Assembly: GCA_011056835.1 (NCBI GenBank)
Contig: DSDU01000243.1
Location: forward strand, 6,305-70,304
Direction of reading: 5' to 3'
Length of the DNA stretch: 64,000 nucleotides
Source: Deltaproteobacteria bacterium
Lineage (GTDB): Bacteria > Desulfobacterota > Syntrophia > Syntrophales > UBA6807
Shown piece after piece: positions 2,430-64,000 of this stretch. The notes under the pieces were generated by a model. The model ran no database searches, was not told the origin of the DNA, and was given only the letters and a program-made list of their open reading frames with translations. How positions within the stretch are numbered: position 1 is the first letter of the stretch; the number at the start of each line of letters is the position of its first letter. A program made the translations under genes and the position numbers.

Positions 2430-3298
2430 GCGTACATAACATTCTGACCGTCGACCTCGAGGACTGGTATCACATCTGCGGCGTCGATCAAGTGCTCCCC
2501 GAAGCCGACTGGCCGGACCTTGAAAGTCGTGTGGAGCAGAACACTCTTAAAATACTCGATATTCTCCGCCGACGAACCATTACGGCGACTTTTTTCGTTC
2601 TTGGATACATCGCAGACCGTCATGGCGAGCTCATCAGAAAGATTCATCGTGACGGTCACGAAATCGCCACACACGGATATGCTCACCGGCGAGTCTACAC
2701 CATGACACAGGACGAGTTTCGCAGGGATCTGAAACAGGCGATTGATACCATCACCAGGATCACAGGACGCCCGATCAAGGGATACCGGGCGCCGGAATGG
2801 TCCGTCCGGAATGACTCGCTGTGGGCGCTTGACATTCTCAGGCAGGAGGGATTCGCATACGATTCGAGTATGGCGCCACTACCGATTATCGGTAATTCAG
2901 CCTATCCGAGAGCACCGCACAGACTGGTACTCAATGAGGGTCATATCTGGGAATTCCCGCCACTTACCGCATACACTCCTCTTATCAACCTGCCCGTGGG
3001 CGGAGGATGGGGACTCCGAGTATTTCCATATCGATTGATACACAGATCCATAGAAAAGTTCAACAGGAATGGTGAACCCGCCGTAATCTACGTCCATCCG
3101 CGGGAATTCGACCACAACCCGCCCCGCGTGAAGCTGCCGCTTTCCAAACTCTTTGTTCTGCATGCCCGTGTTGTCACGACGCCTGAGCGACTCGAACGCC
3201 TGCTCGACGATTTCCCCTTCACATCGATCTCCACCGTTCTCGAAAAGAAAACCGTTGCATTTCAGAGACGACATATGTATAAGGAAAAATTCAGCTAA
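2426..3298 (+). CDS. polysaccharide deacetylase family protein (NodB fold, DUF3473/PEP-CTERM-locus-like subfamily)
   Basis: 290 aa. The N-terminal ILTVDLEDWYH and FFVLG...HEIATHGYAH motifs are typical of this deacetylase subfamily. ATGA overlap with the upstream gene and TAATG overlap with the downstream gene. Confidence 0.75.
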   Translation: MSVHNILTVDLEDWYHICGVDQVLPEADWPDLESRVEQNTLKILDILRRRTITATFFVLGYIADRHGELIRKIHRDGHEIATHGYAHRRVYTMTQDEFRRDLKQAIDTITRITGRPIKGYRAPEWSVRNDSLWALDILRQEGFAYDSSMAPLPIIGNSAYPRAPHRLVLNEGHIWEFPPLTAYTPLINLPVGGGWGLRVFPYRLIHRSIEKFNRNGEPAVIYVHPREFDHNPPRVKLPLSKLFVLHARVVTTPERLERLLDDFPFTSISTVLEKKTVAFQRRHMYKEKFS

Positions 3299-3801
3299 TG
3301 ACTGAGATCGTGCTCTATTTAAAAAGCAACCTTGCAGATAACTTCGTTCTCTATTTCATCCCGCTCTATATCGTGGGAGGGAGACCCGTTGCCGTTCTCA
3401 GTGCGCAGTTATTAGGTTATACTGCATTATTTATTGTGCCTGTCGTCGTCATGCTGGACACGTTGCAGATACCAATGTTCTATTATCTTTACGGCGCGCT
3501 GTCTCAACGATTATTGGTACGGAAGCTCTCTGAAAGAGCCAGAAAGAAGGAACGGAAGCTTCACGAATCGCGTTTTTTTCGCTGGATGCAGGTCATGGGC
3601 GCCCCGGGTGTTGTGGCAATAACATTGCTTCCCATGAAAGGGTGCGGCATGTGGAGCGGTGTTCTTCTTTCAAAATTATTAAAGTATCCCAAACCTTACA
3701 GCTATCTGCTTCTGATTCTGGGCAGTACTTTGGGGTGCGCTATTCTGCTGGGAATCGGTGACTGCATCTTGAAGTTATGGTGGATATTAGCCGGCAGCTG
3801 A
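3298..3801 (+). CDS. small integral membrane protein, function unknown
   Basis: 167 aa with about four hydrophobic helices separated by a basic loop (RKLSERARKKERKLHESR). The start overlaps the upstream stop (TAATG). Confidence 0.6.
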   Translation: MTEIVLYLKSNLADNFVLYFIPLYIVGGRPVAVLSAQLLGYTALFIVPVVVMLDTLQIPMFYYLYGALSQRLLVRKLSERARKKERKLHESRFFRWMQVMGAPGVVAITLLPMKGCGMWSGVLLSKLLKYPKPYSYLLLILGSTLGCAILLGIGDCILKLWWILAGS

Positions 3802-3827
3802 AACATACAAAAAGGGGATTCTCACGA

Positions 3828-5198
3828 ATGGTATATACGCTCAAGAGCCGATTTTTAATATACTTGATTAATTTTCTCTTCATTCTTCTCTCGAACATAC
3901 GCAATGATCGATTATTCAGATGGATTTACACCGTATTGGCCTATCTGGCCGAAAAACTGGCTACCAAAGATTATTATGTGGAAAAAATCAAGTGGATCAA
4001 GAGGCTGTTTGACACCAACCACCCCAGCCTCGCCGTCACGAAGAAGATTCTCAGGGGAACAAACCCTCACCACCGGAAAACACTCATCAAGGCGGCAATT
4101 CTCAATCAGCTCCTTATCGGCACGAATAAACGGAAGGAGTTTTCCGAAAGAACCGGAATGCCCTATCCTCCCGGTTTCTTCGTCATCAGTCCAAGCATGA
4201 AATGCAACCTGAAGTGTTACGGATGTTATGCGGGCTCTTACGACAAGAGGGGCGAATTGTCATTTGAAGAAATCGACAGCACACTCACTCAGGCGAAGGA
4301 AATGGGAATGTTTTTCTGTGTCGTGTCCGGCGGGGAGCCCTTTTTTCATCCCCGGATTTTCGATATTTTCAGAAAACACAATGATGTCGTCTTTCACGTT
4401 TTCACCAACGGAACGTTGATCAATAAAGAAACCTGCCGGCGGCTTGTCGATGTCGGCAACATCATACCGGCCATCAGCATCGAAGGATACGAAGAAGAAA
4501 CAGACCTGCGCCGTGGTCGAGGACATTTCGGCAAAATCATGAAGGCGATGGAGCTGCTGAGAGAATCGAAAATACTGTTCGGCTTTTCCGGGACACTGAC
4601 TCGACGGAATACGGAGATTCTTAACAGTGACGAATTCATAGAATTTATGATCGACAAGGGATGTGTGCTGGGGTGGTACTTCATGTATGTTCCCATCGGA
4701 CGGGAACCGAACCTTGAACTCATGCAAACCCCTGAGCAGCGGGGATATCAGTATGAACGATTAACGTATCTCCGGGCAAGCAAACAGATTCTTCTGGCCG
4801 ACTTCTGGCATGATGGACCGTTGGTCGGAGGATGCATCGCCGGCGGCAGAAAATACTTTCACATCAATGCCAATGGAGACGTGGAACCATGTGTCTTCTG
4901 TCATTATGCCACCCACAATATCAGGGCAACCCCTCTGAAGGAGGCTATTTTTTCCCCCATGTTCCGATCGCTGTGTTCTCGACTTCCCCTGTATGACAAT
5001 CTTCTTCGACCATGCACACTTGTCGACAATCCTCAGGTCGGCCGTGATACCATCACGAAATTCGGAGCATATTTCACCCATGAGGGCGCAGAAATCATCT
5101 TTCAGGATCTGGCAGGTGAAATGGATGAGTACGCGCAAAAGTATGCGGTTGTTGCCGACAATCTCTGGAAAAAGTATTTCCCGGCCGAAAAGGGATAG
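3828..5198 (+). CDS. radical SAM enzyme with N-terminal hydrophobic/helical region and Cys-rich C-terminal (SPASM/twitch-like) extension
   Basis: CNLKCYGCYA is a CxxxCxxC cluster motif, followed by a GGEPF SAM-binding motif. The C-terminal part is GGCIAGGRKYFHINANGDVEPCVFCHY plus two further Cys. ATG 3828 (SD AAGGGGA 9 nt upstream) is preferred over ATG 3777, which would overlap the previous gene by 25 nt. Confidence 0.8.
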   Translation: MVYTLKSRFLIYLINFLFILLSNIRNDRLFRWIYTVLAYLAEKLATKDYYVEKIKWIKRLFDTNHPSLAVTKKILRGTNPHHRKTLIKAAILNQLLIGTNKRKEFSERTGMPYPPGFFVISPSMKCNLKCYGCYAGSYDKRGELSFEEIDSTLTQAKEMGMFFCVVSGGEPFFHPRIFDIFRKHNDVVFHVFTNGTLINKETCRRLVDVGNIIPAISIEGYEEETDLRRGRGHFGKIMKAMELLRESKILFGFSGTLTRRNTEILNSDEFIEFMIDKGCVLGWYFMYVPIGREPNLELMQTPEQRGYQYERLTYLRASKQILLADFWHDGPLVGGCIAGGRKYFHINANGDVEPCVFCHYATHNIRATPLKEAIFSPMFRSLCSRLPLYDNLLRPCTLVDNPQVGRDTITKFGAYFTHEGAEIIFQDLAGEMDEYAQKYAVVADNLWKKYFPAEKG

Positions 5199-5216
5199 AT
5201 CACGAGGTCATACCCC

Positions 5217-7754
5217 TTGCATCACATAATTTATCGATTCCACCGGCACATACTGATCCTGACGATCTGTATCACCGTACTGGCCGCAATGTTGGCATTT
5301 CGCCTTCAACTCGACATGAACTTCTACTCGCTCCTTCCCGATCACAATGAGGAAGTGCGGATTTTTTTCGATATCACCGACCGGATCGGGGAGCATTCCC
5401 TCCTGATTGCAGTCATTTCCATACCCTCACGTGACGAAGCCGAAACAGGTGAATCATTTATTGAAACATTTGCGGAGAATCTTGCCGGAAGCCCGCTCAT
5501 CAAAAATGTCACCTATAAGAATGACGGACGTGAATTCCCGTCCGTCTTCGGGACCTTGCTCGACTACCTCCCGCTTTTTCTTCAAGTCGAAGACCTGGAA
5601 CTCCTGGCATCTCATTTAACAGACGAGGAGATCCGTCATCAGGTGCAACAGAATAAACATCTTCTCATGACTCCCTTCGGCATGGCAGCACGAGACATCA
5701 TCGCCGCCGATCCCCTTGGTATTCGGGAACTCTTCGAACATCGGTTCACCTCCCCCGCGGCAAAACAGATAAACTCCGGAAGAACAGGGTTTTTCCGAAC
5801 CGACGACGGTTCAACCTACTTTATCTTCATAAGCCCGCACCGACCGCCTCAGGATCTTTCCTTCAGCAGAGACCTCATGAAAACAGTCGGTCATCTTGAA
5901 CAGTTGTCACTCGAAGACGTGGGGCTCGATTCACGAAGCGGGATTATCGTTTCGTACACGGGCGGATACCCAATTGCCGTTCGTGACGAGGCAACGACAA
6001 AGAAAGATATTGCCGTAACCATCCTGACATCTTTCCTGGCGGTTCTTATTCTATTCGGGATATCATTCAGAACAACACGGGTTCTTTTCTATGTCGCAGC
6101 TTCACTTGTCATAAGCATTCTGTGGACTCTCGGGTTCACCAGTATCATGTTTCACCATGTTAATGTCCTTACCTGCGTATTCTCATGTGTGTTGATCGGT
6201 CTTGGTATTGATTTTGCGATTCACATGGTTAATCGCTACTTTGGAAACGATAAAATCAATCTCCCACCGACACTTCGACTTAAAGAAACATTTCATGAAT
6301 CCGGAATGGGGATTGTAATCGGAGGAATCACAACAGCCGTTGCGTTTTATTCGATAGCCATATCTGATTTTCGCGGATTTCAAGAACTCGGCATTGTCAC
6401 GGGAACGGGAATCCTTATCTGCCTCGCCGTCATGCTGGTCGTCCTTCCCTGCCTTCTGATCTTTTTCTCGACGCAAACAAAAAGCGGACGACCGATTATG
6501 ATCAGTAGATTCGGACTCGAAAAGCCCATGCGCCTGTGCGCTTCATATCCGAAAACAATAATTGCTGCGTTCCTTTTTGTTACGGTTCTCCTTTCGCTCT
6601 CAGGATTTCGCGTCTCTTTCGATGATAATCTCAGGAATTTCCGCCCTGCCGACAGTGAAACTTTTCACCTCCAGGATATGGTCAGTCGCTGGATCGGGGG
6701 ATCGATGGCACAAACAATGATAGTCGTTCAAGGTCCTTCTGAAAAGGATGTCCTGAAAAAGAGCTCTCAAATATTCCATGCCATGAAAGATTTAAAACAA
6801 AACGGCAGGATTGGCGGATTCACTTCGCTGAACCGGTTTATTGCCTCTGCCGAGGAGCAGAAACTTACGGGGCAAATGATCCGAAGCGGGGGAATAGCCT
6901 TTGACCCGGACCGTATTCAGGAGACCTTTAACCGGGCCTGTGACGAAAACGGATTTGCCACGGCAGGTCTCTACGATGACTATTTCAATAAATTACGTAA
7001 AGTCCTGACATCAGAAGAGATAATTCTTCCATCGGCGCTTGGGGAGACTGCCCTCGCACCGCTGATTAAACCGTTTATGGCGGCCATGGAGAAAGACTAT
7101 ACGATAATAACATACATCTTTCCGTTGAAAGACCTCTGGCACCACACTGACACGACGGCATTCAGAGAAACGGTAACAGCCAAGCTGACAGAGGTCGGCC
7201 TGAATAAAGGCGACTACAAACTCACCGGACCAAACCTCCTTACGGGTGAATTGAAGCGGCTTATTATTTCCAACCTCGAATCGTCATTATTGTTGGCGCT
7301 GCTTGCCATTGCGGGAGTTCTCATTCTCTATTATCACTCCCTTGCCTTGTTCCTGCTCTCCATCGTTCCTCTTTTCATCGGACTGACCACTGTGGCAGGT
7401 ATCATGGTTCTTGCGAAACTCGATTTCAATTTCTTCAATATAATCATCCTGCCGATGATTGCGGGAATCGGCATTGACGACGGTATCCACCTCACCAACA
7501 CCTTTCGTCAGGTCACCGGTCATAACTTTTTGAGTGACATGGCACGAACGGGACGGGCGGTCGTCCTGACATCCCTGACAACCATGGCCGGCTTCGGTAC
7601 ACTGGCGCTCTCTCATTATCCGGGATTGAGAAGCATGGGATATGTGGCGGTTATCGGCATCAGCGCGTGCCTCATGGCATCGATTATTATACTTCCCGCG
7701 CTGTACACACTGATATTAAAGTGGAAAAAGCAGGCCAACGGAGCACCAAGCTGA
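5217..7754 (+). CDS. MMPL/RND-superfamily predicted lipid exporter (COG4258-like)
   Basis: 845 aa with a TTG start 9 nt after GAGG. There are two repeats, each a large soluble loop followed by a bundle of about 5-6 TM helices. This is the architecture of MMPL-type exporters found in specialised-lipid clusters. Confidence 0.75.
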   Translation: MHHIIYRFHRHILILTICITVLAAMLAFRLQLDMNFYSLLPDHNEEVRIFFDITDRIGEHSLLIAVISIPSRDEAETGESFIETFAENLAGSPLIKNVTYKNDGREFPSVFGTLLDYLPLFLQVEDLELLASHLTDEEIRHQVQQNKHLLMTPFGMAARDIIAADPLGIRELFEHRFTSPAAKQINSGRTGFFRTDDGSTYFIFISPHRPPQDLSFSRDLMKTVGHLEQLSLEDVGLDSRSGIIVSYTGGYPIAVRDEATTKKDIAVTILTSFLAVLILFGISFRTTRVLFYVAASLVISILWTLGFTSIMFHHVNVLTCVFSCVLIGLGIDFAIHMVNRYFGNDKINLPPTLRLKETFHESGMGIVIGGITTAVAFYSIAISDFRGFQELGIVTGTGILICLAVMLVVLPCLLIFFSTQTKSGRPIMISRFGLEKPMRLCASYPKTIIAAFLFVTVLLSLSGFRVSFDDNLRNFRPADSETFHLQDMVSRWIGGSMAQTMIVVQGPSEKDVLKKSSQIFHAMKDLKQNGRIGGFTSLNRFIASAEEQKLTGQMIRSGGIAFDPDRIQETFNRACDENGFATAGLYDDYFNKLRKVLTSEEIILPSALGETALAPLIKPFMAAMEKDYTIITYIFPLKDLWHHTDTTAFRETVTAKLTEVGLNKGDYKLTGPNLLTGELKRLIISNLESSLLLALLAIAGVLILYYHSLALFLLSIVPLFIGLTTVAGIMVLAKLDFNFFNIIILPMIAGIGIDDGIHLTNTFRQVTGHNFLSDMARTGRAVVLTSLTTMAGFGTLALSHYPGLRSMGYVAVIGISACLMASIIILPALYTLILKWKKQANGAPS

Positions 7755-7915
7755 ACTGAAAGGATTCTGCGCTTCACCTGAGTTCCATCTTTTTTCGCCG
7801 CGGCAGTGCCCTCACATTCGATATGGTGTCACCTCGGGCACAGAGAATAGATTAGCGGTTGTATTATTCAGTCAAATTGTTTAAACAAAACTGCAAATCA
7901 TGGGAGTGACACGAT

Positions 7916-8155
7916 ATGAGAAAAATCATATTCCTGCTGATTGTTGCAGCGGCTCCCGCCTTCGGCGTCATGAACTATCACGTCATCTTTCTTGACGACG
8001 GCGTAAAGATCCTGAAAAAAGCGGACCTTGCTCTCGACGACACATTCATTGATGCCCGGGGAGTAAAGCGGTTCAAGCTGATAACGAACCCGTCGTTGGT
8101 TAAATCAGGAGTGAAAAACTTGATCGATGATAAAAGTGCTTCAATACCAAAGTAA
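7916..8155 (+). CDS. small secreted protein, function unknown
   Basis: 79 aa with GGGAG 9 nt upstream of the ATG and a signal-peptide-like N-terminus, MRKIIFLLIVAAAPAFG. Confidence 0.5.
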   Translation: MRKIIFLLIVAAAPAFGVMNYHVIFLDDGVKILKKADLALDDTFIDARGVKRFKLITNPSLVKSGVKNLIDDKSASIPK

Positions 8156-8193
8156 GGTTTCATAAACAAATTCAAAAAAGGCGGATTGAAAAT

Positions 8194-8418
8194 ATGCGGT
8201 ATGTGTTCAGATCAAAGGTCGGTACGTTTTCCATAGAATCCGACGAAGTTCACTGGGACATGGTCCAGCTCTGTCTGGGCGGTCTCTGGCTCCGAACGGT
8301 GGAAACCGCCGAAGAAGCGGCACGGTTCGTATACGAACAGAAAACCGGACTGCATGAATGGGATACGCTCACCGAAATCGAGGCACCATCCGATCTCTCA
8401 GGATGGGAAACCGTATAA
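8194..8418 (+). CDS. small hypothetical protein
   Basis: 74 aa with globular-looking composition (MRYVFRSKVGTFSIESDE...) and a weak SD (AGGCGGA). An overlapping antisense ORF at 8250..8525 looks less protein-like. Confidence 0.45.
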   Translation: MRYVFRSKVGTFSIESDEVHWDMVQLCLGGLWLRTVETAEEAARFVYEQKTGLHEWDTLTEIEAPSDLSGWETV

Positions 8419-8569
8419 AGGCCGCAACTCAATGACCCGGTCATCAGCGGAACGTCATACCACGATGTATCGGGAACCCGGCAATGGAATGAACAACGCG
8501 GAGAAGTGACGATGATACAGTCCATGAACTATCCCCTGCAGCTTTCGGCTTACGCTGTTCCGTCATTGA

Positions 8570-9250
8570 TCACGAATACAACATCGACTTGCTTTTCTTC
8601 TGCTTCTGTCCGACTACCAGGCCGATCATGAGGCCGAAGAGGAGAACAAGCGCTCCCGCTAAGAACCATTTGATGGCGATTGTTGATTTTAACGATTTGT
8701 TCTCTTCGGTCAGATATGCCACAGTCTGTTGCGCCTGCTTCAGGGCTGATTTTGCGACCTCATGGGCTTCCTTGAGCTTCAAATAGTCTGCGGCACCTCC
8801 CTTCAGCTCGGCATAAGTCTTCTTCAGTTCCTCATAAGCCTTTGTCTGCTGTTTCAGCGTCGTCGTCACCTGCTGCAGCTGGGTGTTCGTTTCCTTCACC
8901 TTTCCATCAAGAAGGGGAACCCTTTCCTTTAATCTGCTGTTTTCTCTCAATAAGTATTCGGTCTGATTCTCCCACGGCATACGGGTCATGAGAAAGCGAG
9001 TCAGTACCCACCCTTCTTTATCCTCCGCTTTTCCCCCTTTGACGCGGATATGGGTCCAGTCACCACCTGCCTCCAGAACCTCAACCTTCTGACCTGATGG
9101 CAGCATGGATACGATTTTATTATTAGTGCTCGGTCCCGTGCGAAGCATTATTTCGAAAGAATCGGTGACATACATATCGGCGGTTATCCCCCGTTCCGCC
9201 CCTAGAGTTATGCTTACGGCAATAACAAGAATATACAAAAGTTTCTTCAT
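8570..9250 (-). CDS. SH3-domain protein with coiled coil and C-terminal membrane anchor (YgiM-like architecture)
   Basis: 226 aa. Signal peptide, bacterial SH3-like segment (LRTGPSTNNKIVSMLPSGQKVEVLEAGGDWTHIRV), a long heptad-rich region, then a TM helix WFLAGALVLLFGLMIGLVVG and a basic tail. Confidence 0.7.
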   Translation of the reverse strand: MKKLLYILVIAVSITLGAERGITADMYVTDSFEIMLRTGPSTNNKIVSMLPSGQKVEVLEAGGDWTHIRVKGGKAEDKEGWVLTRFLMTRMPWENQTEYLLRENSRLKERVPLLDGKVKETNTQLQQVTTTLKQQTKAYEELKKTYAELKGGAADYLKLKEAHEVAKSALKQAQQTVAYLTEENKSLKSTIAIKWFLAGALVLLFGLMIGLVVGQKQKKSKSMLYS

Positions 9251-9545
9251 GGTGCTCTCTACCTTTCAGGATGACGGTCTCATTCCGATCTCTATCAGAC
9301 GGTGCCCACAATAACAGGAATTAGGAAAGATTTCTATCATTTCTTGTTCAGGCATGCTGAGAAATCGACAGATTCATGCTCTAACAGTCCGTTAAAAAAG
9401 CTTGATCCCGATGCCGTTCACCGGAGTCCGCAGGCACGACCCTCCGAATCCCTGCATGATTCTGCTCACAGCCTGAAACACTGGACAATTCAGTGTGAGA
9501 AAAATCTTCAGACACCGGGAGATTTTCGACTGCACAAAAACTATT

Positions 9546-10391
9546 TCAAGAACACTTGAAAGCAGTTGTGGTTTTGCTCACGCCGGGCAGCATGAACTTT
9601 CCGTGAGACTGTCTACATACTATTTCGGCCAGCCTTCCAAATATCACCGATGGGATCCGGTAAGCCCGTTTTGATGGGCGGGTGGAGCCGCCGATGACGG
9701 TCTCGACATAACCAAATCCGGTATGGTGCAGCAGGGTCCTCATCGTATCAGGGGCAAAATCATAAAGGTGATAAGGTGTATGGTAGAGGTTGAGCTTTCT
9801 GCTCAGCGGCCCCAGGAGTTTCACAATAGGAGTTGAATGAGGCCACCTCAGCAAAATGAAACCTCCGGGCTTGAGAATCCGGTTGACTTCCAACAACAGT
9901 TTTATCGGATCATGCACGTGTTCAATGACGTAAAAGAGCGTAACGGCATCAAAGACGTTGTCAGTTAGTGAAAGTTCTTCAAGCGGTCGAATGTGAACGG
10001 GGATATCCCACCGATCCCGAATGTATTGAATGCCGGCAGGAGATATTTCGACCCCTTCGACCTGCCAGCCGCAATTTTTCATTTCCCGAAGGAAAAAACC
10101 GAATCCGCAACCGATGTCAAGCAATTTCCCGCCATCGGCGCCGGTCCTCGTTCTGATCAGATGTGCAGACGAACGAACAACCGGCATCATCATCCGGTCC
10201 CACGCGGCTATTTCTTCGTGATCCACCGGCAGATAATCTTTATATTGTTCAGAAAGTTCCGAAGGGGAAGGACGGGGGACAATCCATACAAGACCGCAGT
10301 TTTTACATTGAACATATCGCCACCGCTCCCTCCGGCACACTAATGTAGCATTTATCTCATGACATAAGATGCAGGAACAACATGTGTTCAT
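9546..10391 (-). CDS. class I SAM-dependent methyltransferase with N-terminal Cys4 zinc-ribbon
   Basis: 281 aa. CSCILCHE...CKNCG gives two CxxC pairs. SAM motif I is LLDIGCGFGFF, with a post-I acidic residue and a motif-II-like DAVTLFYVIEHV. The start abuts the stop of the upstream gene (10391/10392). Confidence 0.8.
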   Translation of the reverse strand: MNTCCSCILCHEINATLVCRRERWRYVQCKNCGLVWIVPRPSPSELSEQYKDYLPVDHEEIAAWDRMMMPVVRSSAHLIRTRTGADGGKLLDIGCGFGFFLREMKNCGWQVEGVEISPAGIQYIRDRWDIPVHIRPLEELSLTDNVFDAVTLFYVIEHVHDPIKLLLEVNRILKPGGFILLRWPHSTPIVKLLGPLSRKLNLYHTPYHLYDFAPDTMRTLLHHTGFGYVETVIGGSTRPSKRAYRIPSVIFGRLAEIVCRQSHGKFMLPGVSKTTTAFKCS

Positions 10392-10964
10392 TCATATGCC
10401 TTTCTGCGGCGATTCGGCCCGTTCCTTCAACTTATCGAGAAACGCTTCAACCATGACATTGTGCTTCAGCCTGATCTTGAGATTCCAGAATATACGACGG
10501 ATGTATCCCCTGGGCTCTACAATTATTGTCTGGATTACCAGCGTCCCCTCATCGACGCGCTCCAGTTCCCATAGTTCCGTTCCTCCGGCGAAGAAGCCGT
10601 CACGAAAACTTAACCGTATCCGATCACAGGGAGCAACCTCTTCAACGCGAGACGTCCAGCCAAGCTTGAATATATGTTCGATCTTCGTCGTAACAACGGT
10701 TCCCTGCTGATACGGCAGCAGCGGTTCGAAGCTCACCATGGTTCCGCTGGGACAGAACGTCTGAAACGTTTCTTCATTCGTCAGCAATTCAAAAATCCGT
10801 TTTTTATCCGCGTTGACGAACCTCTCATGTCGATTGATTTCTCCCGCATAACCATGATAGTCGGGAGCGTCAACCGTGTATTTCGTCGAACAGCCGACCA
10901 GGCAGATCATGATGAACATACACCATGTTTTTCGAAAGAGATGAATCGCAGTGTGCCGATGCAT
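10392..10964 (-). CDS. lipoprotein, possibly SRPBCC (START/polyketide-cyclase-like) fold
   Basis: 190 aa with lipobox LVGC after a hydrophobic leader. The size and alternating beta/helix pattern are compatible with an SRPBCC ligand-binding fold. The fold assignment is tentative. Confidence 0.5.
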   Translation of the reverse strand: MHRHTAIHLFRKTWCMFIMICLVGCSTKYTVDAPDYHGYAGEINRHERFVNADKKRIFELLTNEETFQTFCPSGTMVSFEPLLPYQQGTVVTTKIEHIFKLGWTSRVEEVAPCDRIRLSFRDGFFAGGTELWELERVDEGTLVIQTIIVEPRGYIRRIFWNLKIRLKHNVMVEAFLDKLKERAESPQKGI

Positions 10965-11958: not shown

Positions 11959-11997
11959 GCACGTAACCACCATGAAAGGTTCGAACAATCTATCTCA

Positions 11998-54615: not shown

Positions 54616-54654
54616 TGAGATAGATTGTTCGAACCTTTCATGGTGGTTACGTGC

Positions 54655-55648: not shown

Positions 55649-56221
55649 ATGCATCGGCACACTGCGATTCATCTCTTTCGAAAAACATGGTGTATGTTCA
55701 TCATGATCTGCCTGGTCGGCTGTTCGACGAAATACACGGTTGACGCTCCCGACTATCATGGTTATGCGGGAGAAATCAATCGACATGAGAGGTTCGTCAA
55801 CGCGGATAAAAAACGGATTTTTGAATTGCTGACGAATGAAGAAACGTTTCAGACGTTCTGTCCCAGCGGAACCATGGTGAGCTTCGAACCGCTGCTGCCG
55901 TATCAGCAGGGAACCGTTGTTACGACGAAGATCGAACATATATTCAAGCTTGGCTGGACGTCTCGCGTTGAAGAGGTTGCTCCCTGTGATCGGATACGGT
56001 TAAGTTTTCGTGACGGCTTCTTCGCCGGAGGAACGGAACTATGGGAACTGGAGCGCGTCGATGAGGGGACGCTGGTAATCCAGACAATAATTGTAGAGCC
56101 CAGGGGATACATCCGTCGTATATTCTGGAATCTCAAGATCAGGCTGAAGCACAATGTCATGGTTGAAGCGTTTCTCGATAAGTTGAAGGAACGGGCCGAA
56201 TCGCCGCAGAAAGGCATATGA
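55649..56221 (+). CDS. mirror copy: lipoprotein, possibly SRPBCC fold
   Basis: Mirror of 10392..10964(-); identical 190 aa. Confidence 0.5.
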   Translation: MHRHTAIHLFRKTWCMFIMICLVGCSTKYTVDAPDYHGYAGEINRHERFVNADKKRIFELLTNEETFQTFCPSGTMVSFEPLLPYQQGTVVTTKIEHIFKLGWTSRVEEVAPCDRIRLSFRDGFFAGGTELWELERVDEGTLVIQTIIVEPRGYIRRIFWNLKIRLKHNVMVEAFLDKLKERAESPQKGI

Positions 56222-57067
56222 ATGAACACATGTTGTTCCTGCATCTTATGTCATGAGATAAATGCTACATTAGTGTGCCGGAGGGAGCGGTGGCGATATG
56301 TTCAATGTAAAAACTGCGGTCTTGTATGGATTGTCCCCCGTCCTTCCCCTTCGGAACTTTCTGAACAATATAAAGATTATCTGCCGGTGGATCACGAAGA
56401 AATAGCCGCGTGGGACCGGATGATGATGCCGGTTGTTCGTTCGTCTGCACATCTGATCAGAACGAGGACCGGCGCCGATGGCGGGAAATTGCTTGACATC
56501 GGTTGCGGATTCGGTTTTTTCCTTCGGGAAATGAAAAATTGCGGCTGGCAGGTCGAAGGGGTCGAAATATCTCCTGCCGGCATTCAATACATTCGGGATC
56601 GGTGGGATATCCCCGTTCACATTCGACCGCTTGAAGAACTTTCACTAACTGACAACGTCTTTGATGCCGTTACGCTCTTTTACGTCATTGAACACGTGCA
56701 TGATCCGATAAAACTGTTGTTGGAAGTCAACCGGATTCTCAAGCCCGGAGGTTTCATTTTGCTGAGGTGGCCTCATTCAACTCCTATTGTGAAACTCCTG
56801 GGGCCGCTGAGCAGAAAGCTCAACCTCTACCATACACCTTATCACCTTTATGATTTTGCCCCTGATACGATGAGGACCCTGCTGCACCATACCGGATTTG
56901 GTTATGTCGAGACCGTCATCGGCGGCTCCACCCGCCCATCAAAACGGGCTTACCGGATCCCATCGGTGATATTTGGAAGGCTGGCCGAAATAGTATGTAG
57001 ACAGTCTCACGGAAAGTTCATGCTGCCCGGCGTGAGCAAAACCACAACTGCTTTCAAGTGTTCTTGA
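56222..57067 (+). CDS. mirror copy: SAM-dependent methyltransferase with zinc ribbon
   Basis: Mirror of 9546..10391(-); identical 281 aa. Confidence 0.8.
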   Translation: MNTCCSCILCHEINATLVCRRERWRYVQCKNCGLVWIVPRPSPSELSEQYKDYLPVDHEEIAAWDRMMMPVVRSSAHLIRTRTGADGGKLLDIGCGFGFFLREMKNCGWQVEGVEISPAGIQYIRDRWDIPVHIRPLEELSLTDNVFDAVTLFYVIEHVHDPIKLLLEVNRILKPGGFILLRWPHSTPIVKLLGPLSRKLNLYHTPYHLYDFAPDTMRTLLHHTGFGYVETVIGGSTRPSKRAYRIPSVIFGRLAEIVCRQSHGKFMLPGVSKTTTAFKCS

Positions 57068-57362
57068 AATAGTTTTTGTGCAGTCGAAAATCTCCCGGTG
57101 TCTGAAGATTTTTCTCACACTGAATTGTCCAGTGTTTCAGGCTGTGAGCAGAATCATGCAGGGATTCGGAGGGTCGTGCCTGCGGACTCCGGTGAACGGC
57201 ATCGGGATCAAGCTTTTTTAACGGACTGTTAGAGCATGAATCTGTCGATTTCTCAGCATGCCTGAACAAGAAATGATAGAAATCTTTCCTAATTCCTGTT
57301 ATTGTGGGCACCGTCTGATAGAGATCGGAATGAGACCGTCATCCTGAAAGGTAGAGAGCACC

Positions 57363-58043
57363 ATGAAGAAACTTTTGTATATTCTTGTTATTGCCGTAAG
57401 CATAACTCTAGGGGCGGAACGGGGGATAACCGCCGATATGTATGTCACCGATTCTTTCGAAATAATGCTTCGCACGGGACCGAGCACTAATAATAAAATC
57501 GTATCCATGCTGCCATCAGGTCAGAAGGTTGAGGTTCTGGAGGCAGGTGGTGACTGGACCCATATCCGCGTCAAAGGGGGAAAAGCGGAGGATAAAGAAG
57601 GGTGGGTACTGACTCGCTTTCTCATGACCCGTATGCCGTGGGAGAATCAGACCGAATACTTATTGAGAGAAAACAGCAGATTAAAGGAAAGGGTTCCCCT
57701 TCTTGATGGAAAGGTGAAGGAAACGAACACCCAGCTGCAGCAGGTGACGACGACGCTGAAACAGCAGACAAAGGCTTATGAGGAACTGAAGAAGACTTAT
57801 GCCGAGCTGAAGGGAGGTGCCGCAGACTATTTGAAGCTCAAGGAAGCCCATGAGGTCGCAAAATCAGCCCTGAAGCAGGCGCAACAGACTGTGGCATATC
57901 TGACCGAAGAGAACAAATCGTTAAAATCAACAATCGCCATCAAATGGTTCTTAGCGGGAGCGCTTGTTCTCCTCTTCGGCCTCATGATCGGCCTGGTAGT
58001 CGGACAGAAGCAGAAGAAAAGCAAGTCGATGTTGTATTCGTGA
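57363..58043 (+). CDS. mirror copy: SH3-domain / coiled-coil / membrane-anchor protein
   Basis: Mirror of 8570..9250(-); identical 226 aa. Confidence 0.7.
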   Translation: MKKLLYILVIAVSITLGAERGITADMYVTDSFEIMLRTGPSTNNKIVSMLPSGQKVEVLEAGGDWTHIRVKGGKAEDKEGWVLTRFLMTRMPWENQTEYLLRENSRLKERVPLLDGKVKETNTQLQQVTTTLKQQTKAYEELKKTYAELKGGAADYLKLKEAHEVAKSALKQAQQTVAYLTEENKSLKSTIAIKWFLAGALVLLFGLMIGLVVGQKQKKSKSMLYS

Positions 58044-58194
58044 TCAATGACGGAACAGCGTAAGCCGAAAGCTGCAGGGGATAGTTCATGGACTGTATCA
58101 TCGTCACTTCTCCGCGTTGTTCATTCCATTGCCGGGTTCCCGATACATCGTGGTATGACGTTCCGCTGATGACCGGGTCATTGAGTTGCGGCCT

Positions 58195-58419
58195 TTATAC
58201 GGTTTCCCATCCTGAGAGATCGGATGGTGCCTCGATTTCGGTGAGCGTATCCCATTCATGCAGTCCGGTTTTCTGTTCGTATACGAACCGTGCCGCTTCT
58301 TCGGCGGTTTCCACCGTTCGGAGCCAGAGACCGCCCAGACAGAGCTGGACCATGTCCCAGTGAACTTCGTCGGATTCTATGGAAAACGTACCGACCTTTG
58401 ATCTGAACACATACCGCAT
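58195..58419 (-). CDS. mirror copy: small hypothetical protein
   Basis: Mirror of 8194..8418(+). Confidence 0.45.
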   Translation of the reverse strand: MRYVFRSKVGTFSIESDEVHWDMVQLCLGGLWLRTVETAEEAARFVYEQKTGLHEWDTLTEIEAPSDLSGWETV

Positions 58420-58457
58420 ATTTTCAATCCGCCTTTTTTGAATTTGTTTATGAAACC

Positions 58458-58697
58458 TTACTTTGGTATTGAAGCACTTTTATCATCGATCAAGTTTTTC
58501 ACTCCTGATTTAACCAACGACGGGTTCGTTATCAGCTTGAACCGCTTTACTCCCCGGGCATCAATGAATGTGTCGTCGAGAGCAAGGTCCGCTTTTTTCA
58601 GGATCTTTACGCCGTCGTCAAGAAAGATGACGTGATAGTTCATGACGCCGAAGGCGGGAGCCGCTGCAACAATCAGCAGGAATATGATTTTTCTCAT
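58458..58697 (-). CDS. mirror copy: small secreted protein
   Basis: Mirror of 7916..8155(+). Confidence 0.5.
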   Translation of the reverse strand: MRKIIFLLIVAAAPAFGVMNYHVIFLDDGVKILKKADLALDDTFIDARGVKRFKLITNPSLVKSGVKNLIDDKSASIPK

Positions 58698-58858
58698 ATC
58701 GTGTCACTCCCATGATTTGCAGTTTTGTTTAAACAATTTGACTGAATAATACAACCGCTAATCTATTCTCTGTGCCCGAGGTGACACCATATCGAATGTG
58801 AGGGCACTGCCGCGGCGAAAAAAGATGGAACTCAGGTGAAGCGCAGAATCCTTTCAGT

Positions 58859-61396
58859 TCAGCTTGGTGCTCCGTTGGCCTGCTTTTTCCACTTTAATAT
58901 CAGTGTGTACAGCGCGGGAAGTATAATAATCGATGCCATGAGGCACGCGCTGATGCCGATAACCGCCACATATCCCATGCTTCTCAATCCCGGATAATGA
59001 GAGAGCGCCAGTGTACCGAAGCCGGCCATGGTTGTCAGGGATGTCAGGACGACCGCCCGTCCCGTTCGTGCCATGTCACTCAAAAAGTTATGACCGGTGA
59101 CCTGACGAAAGGTGTTGGTGAGGTGGATACCGTCGTCAATGCCGATTCCCGCAATCATCGGCAGGATGATTATATTGAAGAAATTGAAATCGAGTTTCGC
59201 AAGAACCATGATACCTGCCACAGTGGTCAGTCCGATGAAAAGAGGAACGATGGAGAGCAGGAACAAGGCAAGGGAGTGATAATAGAGAATGAGAACTCCC
59301 GCAATGGCAAGCAGCGCCAACAATAATGACGATTCGAGGTTGGAAATAATAAGCCGCTTCAATTCACCCGTAAGGAGGTTTGGTCCGGTGAGTTTGTAGT
59401 CGCCTTTATTCAGGCCGACCTCTGTCAGCTTGGCTGTTACCGTTTCTCTGAATGCCGTCGTGTCAGTGTGGTGCCAGAGGTCTTTCAACGGAAAGATGTA
59501 TGTTATTATCGTATAGTCTTTCTCCATGGCCGCCATAAACGGTTTAATCAGCGGTGCGAGGGCAGTCTCCCCAAGCGCCGATGGAAGAATTATCTCTTCT
59601 GATGTCAGGACTTTACGTAATTTATTGAAATAGTCATCGTAGAGACCTGCCGTGGCAAATCCGTTTTCGTCACAGGCCCGGTTAAAGGTCTCCTGAATAC
59701 GGTCCGGGTCAAAGGCTATTCCCCCGCTTCGGATCATTTGCCCCGTAAGTTTCTGCTCCTCGGCAGAGGCAATAAACCGGTTCAGCGAAGTGAATCCGCC
59801 AATCCTGCCGTTTTGTTTTAAATCTTTCATGGCATGGAATATTTGAGAGCTCTTTTTCAGGACATCCTTTTCAGAAGGACCTTGAACGACTATCATTGTT
59901 TGTGCCATCGATCCCCCGATCCAGCGACTGACCATATCCTGGAGGTGAAAAGTTTCACTGTCGGCAGGGCGGAAATTCCTGAGATTATCATCGAAAGAGA
60001 CGCGAAATCCTGAGAGCGAAAGGAGAACCGTAACAAAAAGGAACGCAGCAATTATTGTTTTCGGATATGAAGCGCACAGGCGCATGGGCTTTTCGAGTCC
60101 GAATCTACTGATCATAATCGGTCGTCCGCTTTTTGTTTGCGTCGAGAAAAAGATCAGAAGGCAGGGAAGGACGACCAGCATGACGGCGAGGCAGATAAGG
60201 ATTCCCGTTCCCGTGACAATGCCGAGTTCTTGAAATCCGCGAAAATCAGATATGGCTATCGAATAAAACGCAACGGCTGTTGTGATTCCTCCGATTACAA
60301 TCCCCATTCCGGATTCATGAAATGTTTCTTTAAGTCGAAGTGTCGGTGGGAGATTGATTTTATCGTTTCCAAAGTAGCGATTAACCATGTGAATCGCAAA
60401 ATCAATACCAAGACCGATCAACACACATGAGAATACGCAGGTAAGGACATTAACATGGTGAAACATGATACTGGTGAACCCGAGAGTCCACAGAATGCTT
60501 ATGACAAGTGAAGCTGCGACATAGAAAAGAACCCGTGTTGTTCTGAATGATATCCCGAATAGAATAAGAACCGCCAGGAAAGATGTCAGGATGGTTACGG
60601 CAATATCTTTCTTTGTCGTTGCCTCGTCACGAACGGCAATTGGGTATCCGCCCGTGTACGAAACGATAATCCCGCTTCGTGAATCGAGCCCCACGTCTTC
60701 GAGTGACAACTGTTCAAGATGACCGACTGTTTTCATGAGGTCTCTGCTGAAGGAAAGATCCTGAGGCGGTCGGTGCGGGCTTATGAAGATAAAGTAGGTT
60801 GAACCGTCGTCGGTTCGGAAAAACCCTGTTCTTCCGGAGTTTATCTGTTTTGCCGCGGGGGAGGTGAACCGATGTTCGAAGAGTTCCCGAATACCAAGGG
60901 GATCGGCGGCGATGATGTCTCGTGCTGCCATGCCGAAGGGAGTCATGAGAAGATGTTTATTCTGTTGCACCTGATGACGGATCTCCTCGTCTGTTAAATG
61001 AGATGCCAGGAGTTCCAGGTCTTCGACTTGAAGAAAAAGCGGGAGGTAGTCGAGCAAGGTCCCGAAGACGGACGGGAATTCACGTCCGTCATTCTTATAG
61101 GTGACATTTTTGATGAGCGGGCTTCCGGCAAGATTCTCCGCAAATGTTTCAATAAATGATTCACCTGTTTCGGCTTCGTCACGTGAGGGTATGGAAATGA
61201 CTGCAATCAGGAGGGAATGCTCCCCGATCCGGTCGGTGATATCGAAAAAAATCCGCACTTCCTCATTGTGATCGGGAAGGAGCGAGTAGAAGTTCATGTC
61301 GAGTTGAAGGCGAAATGCCAACATTGCGGCCAGTACGGTGATACAGATCGTCAGGATCAGTATGTGCCGGTGGAATCGATAAATTATGTGATGCAA
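58859..61396 (-). CDS. mirror copy: MMPL/RND-type predicted lipid exporter
   Basis: Mirror of 5217..7754(+); identical 845 aa. Confidence 0.75.
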   Translation of the reverse strand: MHHIIYRFHRHILILTICITVLAAMLAFRLQLDMNFYSLLPDHNEEVRIFFDITDRIGEHSLLIAVISIPSRDEAETGESFIETFAENLAGSPLIKNVTYKNDGREFPSVFGTLLDYLPLFLQVEDLELLASHLTDEEIRHQVQQNKHLLMTPFGMAARDIIAADPLGIRELFEHRFTSPAAKQINSGRTGFFRTDDGSTYFIFISPHRPPQDLSFSRDLMKTVGHLEQLSLEDVGLDSRSGIIVSYTGGYPIAVRDEATTKKDIAVTILTSFLAVLILFGISFRTTRVLFYVAASLVISILWTLGFTSIMFHHVNVLTCVFSCVLIGLGIDFAIHMVNRYFGNDKINLPPTLRLKETFHESGMGIVIGGITTAVAFYSIAISDFRGFQELGIVTGTGILICLAVMLVVLPCLLIFFSTQTKSGRPIMISRFGLEKPMRLCASYPKTIIAAFLFVTVLLSLSGFRVSFDDNLRNFRPADSETFHLQDMVSRWIGGSMAQTMIVVQGPSEKDVLKKSSQIFHAMKDLKQNGRIGGFTSLNRFIASAEEQKLTGQMIRSGGIAFDPDRIQETFNRACDENGFATAGLYDDYFNKLRKVLTSEEIILPSALGETALAPLIKPFMAAMEKDYTIITYIFPLKDLWHHTDTTAFRETVTAKLTEVGLNKGDYKLTGPNLLTGELKRLIISNLESSLLLALLAIAGVLILYYHSLALFLLSIVPLFIGLTTVAGIMVLAKLDFNFFNIIILPMIAGIGIDDGIHLTNTFRQVTGHNFLSDMARTGRAVVLTSLTTMAGFGTLALSHYPGLRSMGYVAVIGISACLMASIIILPALYTLILKWKKQANGAPS

Positions 61397-61414
61397 GGGG
61401 TATGACCTCGTGAT

Positions 61415-62785
61415 CTATCCCTTTTCGGCCGGGAAATACTTTTTCCAGAGATTGTCGGCAACAACCGCATACTTTTGCGCGTACTCATCCATTTCACCTG
61501 CCAGATCCTGAAAGATGATTTCTGCGCCCTCATGGGTGAAATATGCTCCGAATTTCGTGATGGTATCACGGCCGACCTGAGGATTGTCGACAAGTGTGCA
61601 TGGTCGAAGAAGATTGTCATACAGGGGAAGTCGAGAACACAGCGATCGGAACATGGGGGAAAAAATAGCCTCCTTCAGAGGGGTTGCCCTGATATTGTGG
61701 GTGGCATAATGACAGAAGACACATGGTTCCACGTCTCCATTGGCATTGATGTGAAAGTATTTTCTGCCGCCGGCGATGCATCCTCCGACCAACGGTCCAT
61801 CATGCCAGAAGTCGGCCAGAAGAATCTGTTTGCTTGCCCGGAGATACGTTAATCGTTCATACTGATATCCCCGCTGCTCAGGGGTTTGCATGAGTTCAAG
61901 GTTCGGTTCCCGTCCGATGGGAACATACATGAAGTACCACCCCAGCACACATCCCTTGTCGATCATAAATTCTATGAATTCGTCACTGTTAAGAATCTCC
62001 GTATTCCGTCGAGTCAGTGTCCCGGAAAAGCCGAACAGTATTTTCGATTCTCTCAGCAGCTCCATCGCCTTCATGATTTTGCCGAAATGTCCTCGACCAC
62101 GGCGCAGGTCTGTTTCTTCTTCGTATCCTTCGATGCTGATGGCCGGTATGATGTTGCCGACATCGACAAGCCGCCGGCAGGTTTCTTTATTGATCAACGT
62201 TCCGTTGGTGAAAACGTGAAAGACGACATCATTGTGTTTTCTGAAAATATCGAAAATCCGGGGATGAAAAAAGGGCTCCCCGCCGGACACGACACAGAAA
62301 AACATTCCCATTTCCTTCGCCTGAGTGAGTGTGCTGTCGATTTCTTCAAATGACAATTCGCCCCTCTTGTCGTAAGAGCCCGCATAACATCCGTAACACT
62401 TCAGGTTGCATTTCATGCTTGGACTGATGACGAAGAAACCGGGAGGATAGGGCATTCCGGTTCTTTCGGAAAACTCCTTCCGTTTATTCGTGCCGATAAG
62501 GAGCTGATTGAGAATTGCCGCCTTGATGAGTGTTTTCCGGTGGTGAGGGTTTGTTCCCCTGAGAATCTTCTTCGTGACGGCGAGGCTGGGGTGGTTGGTG
62601 TCAAACAGCCTCTTGATCCACTTGATTTTTTCCACATAATAATCTTTGGTAGCCAGTTTTTCGGCCAGATAGGCCAATACGGTGTAAATCCATCTGAATA
62701 ATCGATCATTGCGTATGTTCGAGAGAAGAATGAAGAGAAAATTAATCAAGTATATTAAAAATCGGCTCTTGAGCGTATATACCAT
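61415..62785 (-). CDS. mirror copy: radical SAM enzyme with Cys-rich C-terminal extension
   Basis: Mirror of 3828..5198(+). Confidence 0.8.
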   Translation of the reverse strand: MVYTLKSRFLIYLINFLFILLSNIRNDRLFRWIYTVLAYLAEKLATKDYYVEKIKWIKRLFDTNHPSLAVTKKILRGTNPHHRKTLIKAAILNQLLIGTNKRKEFSERTGMPYPPGFFVISPSMKCNLKCYGCYAGSYDKRGELSFEEIDSTLTQAKEMGMFFCVVSGGEPFFHPRIFDIFRKHNDVVFHVFTNGTLINKETCRRLVDVGNIIPAISIEGYEEETDLRRGRGHFGKIMKAMELLRESKILFGFSGTLTRRNTEILNSDEFIEFMIDKGCVLGWYFMYVPIGREPNLELMQTPEQRGYQYERLTYLRASKQILLADFWHDGPLVGGCIAGGRKYFHINANGDVEPCVFCHYATHNIRATPLKEAIFSPMFRSLCSRLPLYDNLLRPCTLVDNPQVGRDTITKFGAYFTHEGAEIIFQDLAGEMDEYAQKYAVVADNLWKKYFPAEKG

Positions 62786-62811
62786 TCGTGAGAATCCCCT
62801 TTTTGTATGTT

Positions 62812-63315
62812 TCAGCTGCCGGCTAATATCCACCATAACTTCAAGATGCAGTCACCGATTCCCAGCAGAATAGCGCACCCCAAAGTACTGCCCAGAATCA
62901 GAAGCAGATAGCTGTAAGGTTTGGGATACTTTAATAATTTTGAAAGAAGAACACCGCTCCACATGCCGCACCCTTTCATGGGAAGCAATGTTATTGCCAC
63001 AACACCCGGGGCGCCCATGACCTGCATCCAGCGAAAAAAACGCGATTCGTGAAGCTTCCGTTCCTTCTTTCTGGCTCTTTCAGAGAGCTTCCGTACCAAT
63101 AATCGTTGAGACAGCGCGCCGTAAAGATAATAGAACATTGGTATCTGCAACGTGTCCAGCATGACGACGACAGGCACAATAAATAATGCAGTATAACCTA
63201 ATAACTGCGCACTGAGAACGGCAACGGGTCTCCCTCCCACGATATAGAGCGGGATGAAATAGAGAACGAAGTTATCTGCAAGGTTGCTTTTTAAATAGAG
63301 CACGATCTCAGTCAT
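62812..63315 (-). CDS. mirror copy: small integral membrane protein
   Basis: Mirror of 3298..3801(+); identical 167 aa. Confidence 0.6.
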   Translation of the reverse strand: MTEIVLYLKSNLADNFVLYFIPLYIVGGRPVAVLSAQLLGYTALFIVPVVVMLDTLQIPMFYYLYGALSQRLLVRKLSERARKKERKLHESRFFRWMQVMGAPGVVAITLLPMKGCGMWSGVLLSKLLKYPKPYSYLLLILGSTLGCAILLGIGDCILKLWWILAGS

Positions 63316-64000
63316 TAGCTGAATTTTTCCTTATACATATGTCGTCTCTGAAATGCAACGGTTTTCTTTTCGAGAACGGTGGAGATCGATGTGAAGGGGA
63401 AATCGTCGAGCAGGCGTTCGAGTCGCTCAGGCGTCGTGACAACACGGGCATGCAGAACAAAGAGTTTGGAAAGCGGCAGCTTCACGCGGGGCGGGTTGTG
63501 GTCGAATTCCCGCGGATGGACGTAGATTACGGCGGGTTCACCATTCCTGTTGAACTTTTCTATGGATCTGTGTATCAATCGATATGGAAATACTCGGAGT
63601 CCCCATCCTCCGCCCACGGGCAGGTTGATAAGAGGAGTGTATGCGGTAAGTGGCGGGAATTCCCAGATATGACCCTCATTGAGTACCAGTCTGTGCGGTG
63701 CTCTCGGATAGGCTGAATTACCGATAATCGGTAGTGGCGCCATACTCGAATCGTATGCGAATCCCTCCTGCCTGAGAATGTCAAGCGCCCACAGCGAGTC
63801 ATTCCGGACGGACCATTCCGGCGCCCGGTATCCCTTGATCGGGCGTCCTGTGATCCTGGTGATGGTATCAATCGCCTGTTTCAGATCCCTGCGAAACTCG
63901 TCCTGTGTCATGGTGTAGACTCGCCGGTGAGCATATCCGTGTGTGGCGATTTCGTGACCGTCACGATGAATCTTTCTGATGAGCTCGCCATGACGGTCTG
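63315..64000 (-). CDS. mirror copy, 5'-truncated by the window edge: polysaccharide deacetylase family protein
   Basis: Mirror of 2426..3298(+). The start would be at 64187, outside the window. Confidence 0.75.
   Translation of the reverse strand, partial: DRHGELIRKIHRDGHEIATHGYAHRRVYTMTQDEFRRDLKQAIDTITRITGRPIKGYRAPEWSVRNDSLWALDILRQEGFAYDSSMAPLPIIGNSAYPRAPHRLVLNEGHIWEFPPLTAYTPLINLPVGGGWGLRVFPYRLIHRSIEKFNRNGEPAVIYVHPREFDHNPPRVKLPLSKLFVLHARVVTTPERLERLLDDFPFTSISTVLEKKTVAFQRRHMYKEKFS

Follow-up and report, generated by a model that had tools for sequence, protein, structure and literature searches.

Features of the palindromic window

The window analyzed here (the whole stretch of 64,000 nucleotides) runs from a gene at its head (75..815) through a kinase gene to a gene for a 199-aa protein (32210..32809) and an intergenic region, and then returns in mirrored order through the genes that lie from 2613 onward (Table 1). 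Base-by-base matching of the two arms gave 0 mismatches and 0 indels over 30,694 bp, and the dyad has a spacer of 0, so that the perfect zero-spacer palindrome claimed by an earlier reading of this DNA, made from the sequence only, stands. An origin of such exact mirroring by chance is impossible. In the window head, 1..2612, no 20-mer is mirrored or repeated elsewhere in the window, because the window stops at 64000. The kinase frameshift pointed out in the same reading is real: a 1-bp deletion turns GGG into GG near 28096, as judged against strains whose 1223-aa protein is intact. Scans of the arm for tRNAs and against Rfam returned no match, including at and near the breakpoint, and a search for synteny in other species found no relative of the apex-proximal 199-aa protein among genome contigs.

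Table 1. Coordinates of the features in the window.
Feature	Position	Strand	Description
Left arm	1..33306	+	True chromosomal DNA; the window's portion of the 39,610-bp unit X
Right arm	33307..64000	-	Exact reverse-complement copy of 2613..33306; artefactual
Fold-back junction	33304..33309	.	GCTAGC, dyad at 33306/33307
Natural intergenic region upstream of the breakpoint	32810..33306	+	From the gene tables of L001, L002 and L039

The symmetry spans the whole source contig

The window belongs to a 79,220-bp contig, the longest recorded, of a GenBank TPA MAG named "Deltaproteobacteria bacterium" (locus tag ENO00_). Its protein accessions, HEU20518 to HEU20595, form mirrored pairs that each sum to 41113 in the last five digits; eight pairs were checked, including the outermost one, HEU20518/HEU20595, which is a 264-aa gene. 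The gene at the window head carries two accessions of this kind (HEU20525 and HEU20588), and the genes upstream of the window start are paired as well (20518/20595, 20519/20594, 20520/20593 and 20524/20589). As all the pairs keep the same sum up to the outermost gene, the entire contig is therefore a unit X followed by its reverse complement, about 2 x 39,610 bp, a conclusion drawn from the accession pairs together with the length arithmetic (half of 79,220 bp is 39,610 bp). Unit X begins about 6.3 kb before the window does, and the earlier estimate of probably 2 x 33.3 kb has to be replaced by 2 x 39.6 kb. With this half-length, the outer end of X falls 19 bp away from where an independent MEGAHIT contig of 55,225 bp begins.

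Independent assemblies read through the dyad

Contigs that reach the dyad were available from independent assemblies in Logan, JGI and ENA (Logan SRR7787793_65, JGI Ga0212126_1000292, eight contigs from ENA ERZ272522xx and JGI Ga03348xx, and JGI Ga0334892_1008573). All of them, 11 of 11, continue past the dyad with the non-mirrored sequence TTCATATTCGCACCG. The natural junction thus reads GGAGAGGCT followed directly by TTCATATTCGCACCG, where the window has GGAGAGGCT followed by AGCCTCTCC. The natural sequence and the palindrome already differ in the first base past the dyad, and the microhomology at the fold-back junction is zero. The NheI site was correctly said to cut on the dyad, and this GCTAGC owes its existence solely to the false join. 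None of the 11 contigs has the right arm, in agreement with the sequence-only reading that the right-arm genes are not independent paralogs; these genes are not paralogues, and they do not represent a second physical copy either.

All 30 of the 31-mers across the junction were missing from the 40 retrieved loci. A degenerate 31-mer covering both the junction and the natural form had no match in genome contigs and none in viral contigs, and a single match, of the natural type, in metagenome contigs. Neither of the two dyad-spanning ORFs is on record.

The left arm is 99.99-100% identical to contigs of the same strain, namely Logan SRR7787793_65 and _120, JGI Ga0212126_1000292 and _1004910, and ENA ERZ27245514 k141_94236, and about 99% identical to some 20 contigs from other strains. 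Identity to same-strain DNA was 100% over 12,798 bp in one locus (L010), with one mismatch in 18,375 bp (L039) and one in 13,298 bp (L030) in two others. SNPs relative to the same-strain contigs lie at 2629, 18193 and 30990; the source population is polymorphic, and minority genotypes are therefore present in it. The same-strain Logan (45 kb) and JGI (46 kb) contigs pass the dyad, and the same-strain ENA contig (55 kb) does so judging by its length. The same bacterium, an uncultured member of the Desulfobacterota ('Deltaproteobacteria'), occurs in JGI metagenome 3300022547, where a MAG was named 'wilburensis' in one paper.

Beyond the dyad, the independent contigs carry 15 kb or more of conserved genes. 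In the real genome the intergenic region listed in Table 1 separates the gene of the 199-aa protein from a hemerythrin gene, which is followed by genes for a pyridine-nucleotide-disulfide oxidoreductase and a MutY-like glycosylase and by rplU (L21), rpmA (L27), obg and proB. This order, including rplU, rpmA, obg and proB, is conserved among the read-through contigs. The downstream genes also have GenBank entries, HEU19360 to HEU19369, which are single-copy, with consecutive accessions and in the natural order; HEU19369 sits on a separate contig of 15,715 bp. By the accession numbering, that contig is apparently part of the same MAG as the palindrome. The JGI contig (and, by length, the ENA contig) ends 15,596 bp past the dyad, which is 119 bp short of 15,715 bp. 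By this arithmetic the 15,715-bp contig would begin some 119 bp before the dyad, and the fold-back thus probably coincides with the edge of a contig in the source assembly.

The breakpoint lacks the marks of a telomere or of an in vivo palindrome

If a linear replicon ended here in a covalently closed hairpin, reading around the tip, or across the head-to-head junction of the replicated form, would give a perfect spacer-less palindrome, as at the sites of Borrelia ResT, phage N15 TelN/telRL and Agrobacterium TelA, the last from a linear chromosome. However, the replicon does not end at the apex. The unique, non-mirrored DNA past about 33300 that the sequence-only reading had named as evidence against a biological hairpin is found in 11 contigs, which run on into conserved housekeeping genes that are apparently in the same MAG. 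An unresolved resolvase site is palindromic, whereas the natural sequence here, GGAGAGGCT continuing into TTCATATTC, shows no dyad symmetry. An inverted-repeat search at the natural breakpoint returned pairs of 8-12 nt at chance level, none of them at the dyad. According to the gene tables, no resolvase, transposase or integrase is encoded in the arm or in the 15 kb past it. The window had been read as free of a telomere resolvase; looking for members of the TelA/ResT/TelN type, we found none there, none in about 22 kb of natural flank and none in an annotated neighbourhood of about 55 kb. The lack of an inverted repeat at the breakpoint and of such enzymes nearby, together with the read-through contigs that refute the hairpin end proposed earlier, effectively rules out a telomere, and we regard its probability as vanishingly small.

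The inverted-repeat search bears also on two other proposals. A turn-around of the assembly graph at a short natural inverted repeat, offered as one variant of an artefact, was rejected, as the sequences diverge at the first base past the dyad and no repeat above chance level is present at the breakpoint. The other proposal is a real fold-back in vivo: in a subpopulation the chromosome would have broken here, the broken end would have been capped by a hairpin or have primed its own synthesis, and replication would have turned it into a large inverted duplication, whose minority junction was then assembled. Such a process would supply the junction k-mers, which need some source and yet are missing from the natural genome, and the SNPs show that minority genotypes exist. 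Inverted duplications seeded in vivo by short inverted repeats resemble the palindrome in being head-to-head and tens of kb long, but their mechanism involves a short inverted repeat at the start and an asymmetric spacer, and neither was found here. Three same-strain assemblies from different pipelines run through the site, the ENA one by its length, which further argues against a fold-back in the cell. Perfect spacer-less palindromes of such size are known to be cut by SbcCD and not to persist. The contig moreover consists of X and its reverse complement alone, with no outer junction to the chromosome, which is the pattern of a walk through a graph. We therefore consider it very unlikely that the junction records a real rare molecule, that is, a broken chromosome end sealed or self-primed to a hairpin, copied to a giant inverted dimer and caught by chance in a metagenome. 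The in vivo palindrome of the sequence-only reading accordingly found no support, and its rare-subpopulation form is equally improbable.

A fold-back in the assembly graph as the probable origin of the palindrome

The feature does not reflect biology but an error of assembly in a public MAG. Very probably it arose as a misassembly in a de Bruijn graph, in which the assembler ran the 39,610-bp chromosomal X into its reverse complement. A fold-back artefact had been ranked first in the sequence-only reading, and the natural read-through in 11 contigs supports this ranking. In the assembly, the true link from X to the downstream contig may have been absent or pruned, and a fold-back edge would have tied the last k-mer of X to its reverse complement. 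A non-branching walk would then have gone along X and returned along its reverse complement; with both arms taken from one graph path, they are identical by construction. The false join would thus have produced the 79,220-bp contig, which was then binned into the public TPA MAG.

Palindromic unitigs are output whole by SPAdes and MEGAHIT (PMC9528984), and in another data set exactly mirrored contigs were recognized as artefacts of assembly and taken out (PMC12755884). The present contig shares with palindromic de Bruijn contigs the exactly mirrored halves, the lack of a spacer, the symmetry across the whole contig, the two ends that represent one genomic position, and, apparently, a true continuation elsewhere. 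Nothing essential sets it apart, although at 79 kb it is a large example, present in GenBank as 39 duplicated protein pairs. Its junction does not lie at a natural palindrome, so that non-genomic k-mers are needed.

Since the fold-back k-mers are missing from the natural genome, one or a few chimeric snap-back reads of library preparation would be their most likely source. By computation, one fold-back read centered on the junction gives a count of at least 2 for every junction k-mer at k = 31 to 145. As each canonical k-mer spanning the junction would be counted twice, even a single chimeric read could pass an error filter of the 'seen at least twice' kind. The palindromic artefacts of Illumina library preparation described by Star et al. 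(2014; PMC3946424) are interrupted palindromes at the read ends of degraded DNA. Such artefacts are reverse-complement fold-backs made in vitro, and they are a plausible source of junction k-mers, but they are interrupted whereas our junction, compared at the assembly level, is spacer-less. The origin of the junction k-mers is the weakest step of the explanation, because zero spacer combined with zero microhomology is unusual for snap-back priming. Snap-back priming normally leaves a loop.

The reads could also have been long. Template and complement do stand in one molecule in fold-back reads from PacBio or Nanopore sequencing in which an adapter was missed or trimmed, and in inverted chimeras from MDA; polishing both arms with the same reads could make them identical. 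However, one TPA MAG project with known methods used short Illumina reads, assembled with MEGAHIT v1.1.2 at k up to 145 or taken over as IMG assemblies (PMC6946796), and the palindromic MAG is likely a product of this pipeline, judging by its accession type and a neighbouring SRR number. With a short-read de Bruijn-graph pipeline as the likely source, the long-read and adapter-trimming variants put forward earlier are unlikely. The boundaries of X point in the same direction: its outer end lies at most 19 bp from the start of the independent MEGAHIT contig, and its fold-back end apparently falls where another contig of this MAG begins, so that boundaries of graph nodes fit better than random fragment ends. 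MDA chimeras, in addition, usually join displaced positions and not the same base. Altogether, a long-read or amplification artefact has little chance of being the origin. Later MEGAHIT versions fold palindromic unitigs before output, a routine that v1.1.2 may lack. A literature search for MEGAHIT combined with 'palindromic' returned CRISPR subjects only.

Consequences for the public genome

The palindrome has no biological significance and matters only as a flag of data quality. In the public MAG, 39.6 kb of sequence and 39 proteins (HEU20557-HEU20595, mirroring HEU20518-HEU20556) are phantom duplicates that could be misread as paralogues, as a giant inverted repeat or as a hairpin telomere. 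The false duplication raises the genome size and the estimates of duplication and contamination, and the apparent true neighbour, the 15.7-kb contig that begins with the hemerythrin gene, was left unjoined. When a genome scan of short-read metagenome assemblies flags a long perfect palindrome, the first thing to establish is whether the mirror image takes up the entire contig.

Extent of the palindrome

Direct comparison showed that positions 33307..64000 are the exact reverse complement of 2613..33306, with 0 mismatches and 0 indels over 30,694 bp and no spacer at the dyad, which lies between 33306 and 33307. This bears out the sequence-only reading of a perfect zero-spacer palindrome at 2613-64000, and a chance origin of such a mirror is impossible. 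GC skew and AT skew are mirror images around the centre, as required of a palindrome, and a GCTAGC site on the dyad is created by the junction. Neither a repeat nor a mirror of the first 2,612 bases occurs within the window, but only because the window ends at 64000.

In cluster look-ups every window protein appeared under two GenBank accessions, both from a single TPA MAG ('Deltaproteobacteria bacterium', locus tag ENO00_), and the pairs always total 41113 (20549+20564, 20555+20558, 20527+20586), including that of the head gene at 75..815 (20525+20588). The longest contig bearing paired accessions is 79,220 bp. Genes upstream of the window start, taken from the same-strain ENA contig and then looked up, were mirrored as well (20524/20589, 20520/20593, 20519/20594 and, outermost, 20518/20595). 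Therefore, the whole contig consists of a 39,610-bp unit, X, and its reverse complement, rc(X), with 78 CDS in 39 pairs; the exact mirror of the earlier reading stands, while its size is enlarged to 2 x 39.6 kb. From this arm size the outer end of X falls at window coordinate -6303, 19 bp from the start (-6322) of the independent 55,225-bp ENA contig, and such a near-coincidence of ends is unlikely without true contig symmetry.

Read-through at the dyad in independent assemblies

Exact-protein look-ups brought up a large number of independent contigs with the apex-proximal genes, and one more was obtained by a pattern scan. All eleven contigs reaching the dyad followed the left arm as far as base 33306 (ten in one alignment, plus Ga0334892_1008573) and then read TTCATATTCGCACCGTTG... 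in place of the window's AGCCTCTCCGATCG...; they part from the window at the first base past the dyad, and thus there is no microhomology. The natural genome continues past this point with genes for a hemerythrin-like protein, a 540-aa pyridine-nucleotide-disulfide oxidoreductase and a MutY-like glycosylase, followed further on by ribosomal proteins L21 and L27, Obg, ProB, O6-methylguanine methyltransferase and RadC; the dyad position is mid-chromosome and not a chromosome end. A search of the 40 fetched loci for the window's 30 junction-spanning 31-mers gave no occurrence. The genome does not turn round at 33306, and the non-mirrored sequence onward from about 33300 that the sequence-only reading had proposed to look for was found in eleven contigs from independent assemblies.

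The hairpin telomere of a linear replicon, which that reading had offered as an alternative, is refuted, as the replicon continues past the dyad, the natural site lacks dyad symmetry and no resolvase is seen nearby (the arm and its visible flanks hold no tRNA, Rfam match, transposase, integrase or telomere resolvase). An in vivo palindromic duplication carried by a minority of cells is highly improbable: there is neither a seeding inverted repeat nor a spacer, the contig has no outer junction, and three other same-strain assemblies ignore the fold-back. The eleven read-through contigs and the whole-contig symmetry instead support an artefact, the explanation initially ranked first. Of the two arms, X is genuine and rc(X) duplicates it, and the junction is non-genomic. 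The 79,220-bp palindrome is not a real genomic feature. It is of use only to flag a public MAG and to remind analysts to check the whole-contig symmetry of long perfect palindromes in short-read metagenome assemblies.

Proposed origin of the fold-back

Each downstream gene has one accession, and these run consecutively in the natural gene order (HEU19360, 19361, 19363, 19366, 19368, 19369); HEU19369 is carried by a 15,715-bp contig. These genes apparently belong to the same MAG as the palindrome, with which the numbering is compatible (ENO00_14470 is roughly the 2,894th gene, and the downstream-gene accessions are ~1,200 lower). Past the dyad the JGI contig runs for another 15,596 bp, as does the ENA contig by its length; since 15,715 - 15,596 = 119, the start of the 15.7-kb contig is probably ~119 bp short of the dyad. 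In that case the fold-back coincides with the edge of a contig in the source assembly, a position predicted by a graph error and not by a biological palindrome.

We infer that the edge truly leading from X into the downstream contig was missing from the de Bruijn graph of the source assembler, and that a fold-back edge joined X at its end to rc(X). An unbranched walk would then spell X followed by rc(X), which would make arm identity automatic. The seed was likely a chimeric fold-back read, because the junction k-mers are absent from the genome; such a read contains each junction-spanning canonical k-mer twice, and one centred read is enough to clear a minimum-count-2 filter, whatever the k from 31 to 145. 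The palindromes described from library preparation (PMC3946424) are interrupted, whereas the junction here is spacer-less, a weak point of this seed.

The MAG may stem from the MEGAHIT pipeline of PRJNA480137, judging by its accession type and by how close SRR7787793 lies to SRR7786998, a run cited for one MAG in PMC6946796. PRJNA480137 was the sole TPA MAG project with methods found; there, short reads were assembled with MEGAHIT v1.1.2 (k up to 145 where reads were 150 bp long), or existing IMG assemblies were taken over (PMC6946796). A 150-bp read at k = 145 yields only six k-mers, and true links are therefore easily lost. A long-read fold-back or MDA chimera is unlikely, since the pipeline inferred for this MAG uses short reads and since both the fold-back and the outer end appear to fall on graph contig boundaries. 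Palindromic unitigs are emitted whole by SPAdes and MEGAHIT (Rahman and Medvedev, PMC9528984), and in a single-cell genome study exactly mirrored contigs were identified as assembly artefacts and removed (PMC12755884).

Gene content and strain variation

The arm genes are ordinary chromosomal ones. In the lipid cluster the pairing with radical-SAM enzymes is unusual. A pattern search found no relatives of the 199-aa protein in GTDB species-representative genomes, and so none in other species for synteny comparison; the spring metagenome contigs carrying it show >90% identity.

Features of the arm, read-through contigs and strain-variable loci
Feature	Position	Details
Fatty-acid or aryl-polyene-like lipid cluster	1..16270, plus ~6.3 kb upstream (1..6323 of ENA ERZ27245514 k141_94236)	FabG-like reductase, ACP, 4HBT thioesterase, GT2 glycosyltransferase, two ketosynthases; several B12-binding/SPASM radical-SAM enzymes, ATP-grasp, PEP-CTERM-associated polysaccharide deacetylase; MMPL exporter, lipid A-type acyltransferases, methyltransferase, FabD-like acyltransferase, ApeP/ApeI-like dehydratase
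CsgG/NHL lipoprotein	 	
PLP enzyme	 	
Large PAS/GAF hybrid histidine kinase	24932..28602	mirrored at 38011..41681
Metallo-beta-lactamase-fold protein, ketopantoate reductase, NUDIX hydrolase, PNPOx-like protein	 	
199-aa apex-proximal protein	32210..32809	no Pfam match
Read-through contig, Logan SRR7787793_65	 	45.3 kb
Read-through contig, JGI 3300022547 Ga0212126_1000292	 	46.4 kb
Read-through contigs (n=8)	 	ENA ERZ272522xx MEGAHIT assemblies and JGI Ga03348xx samples
Read-through contig, JGI Ga0334892_1008573	 	from the pattern scan
Stem-loop in one strain (ENA ERZ27252296)	2503..2524 of that locus	ATATTCGCA-CCGT-TGCGAATAT
Transposase and efflux operon in another strain (ENA ERZ27252295 k141_91929)	2394..3977 of that locus	IS-type DDE transposase (DUF772/DDE_Tnp_1_2), MFS/RND efflux operon

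Three contig sets (Logan, JGI and ENA) are of the same strain as the window. Logan showed 0 mismatches in 12,798 bp and in 2,969 bp and 1 in 18,375 bp, JGI 1-2 mismatches, and ENA ERZ27245514 k141_94236 1 in 13,298 bp. The differences are limited to 2629 (G in the window, A in ENA ERZ27245514 and JGI), 18193 (A in the window, G in Logan and JGI) and 30990 (C in the window, A in JGI). Polymorphism within the sample is suggested at 2629, because this position falls within the 2503..2642 overlap where the JGI assembly splits into two contigs.

As the sequence-only reading had noted, the kinase is frameshifted: a 1-bp deletion (GGG to GG) near 28096 splits it into 1136-aa and about 122-166-aa products, while it is intact at 1223 aa in other strains. 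The same-strain Logan and JGI contigs carry the same deletion, which marks it as a feature of the strain (or a read-level error common to them all) and as unrelated to the palindrome.

One strain has a perfect hairpin with a 9-bp stem and a 4-nt loop just downstream of the breakpoint, 5-26 bp past the natural genome's dyad position; the 3' arm of this hairpin reads TGTGAGTGT in other strains. Lying 19 bp past the dyad, this strain-variable site could interrupt de Bruijn-graph paths nearby. In another strain the transposase and efflux operon follow the metallo-beta-lactamase-fold gene, at the kinase's place in the window, a strain-level rearrangement ~4.7 kb from the breakpoint.
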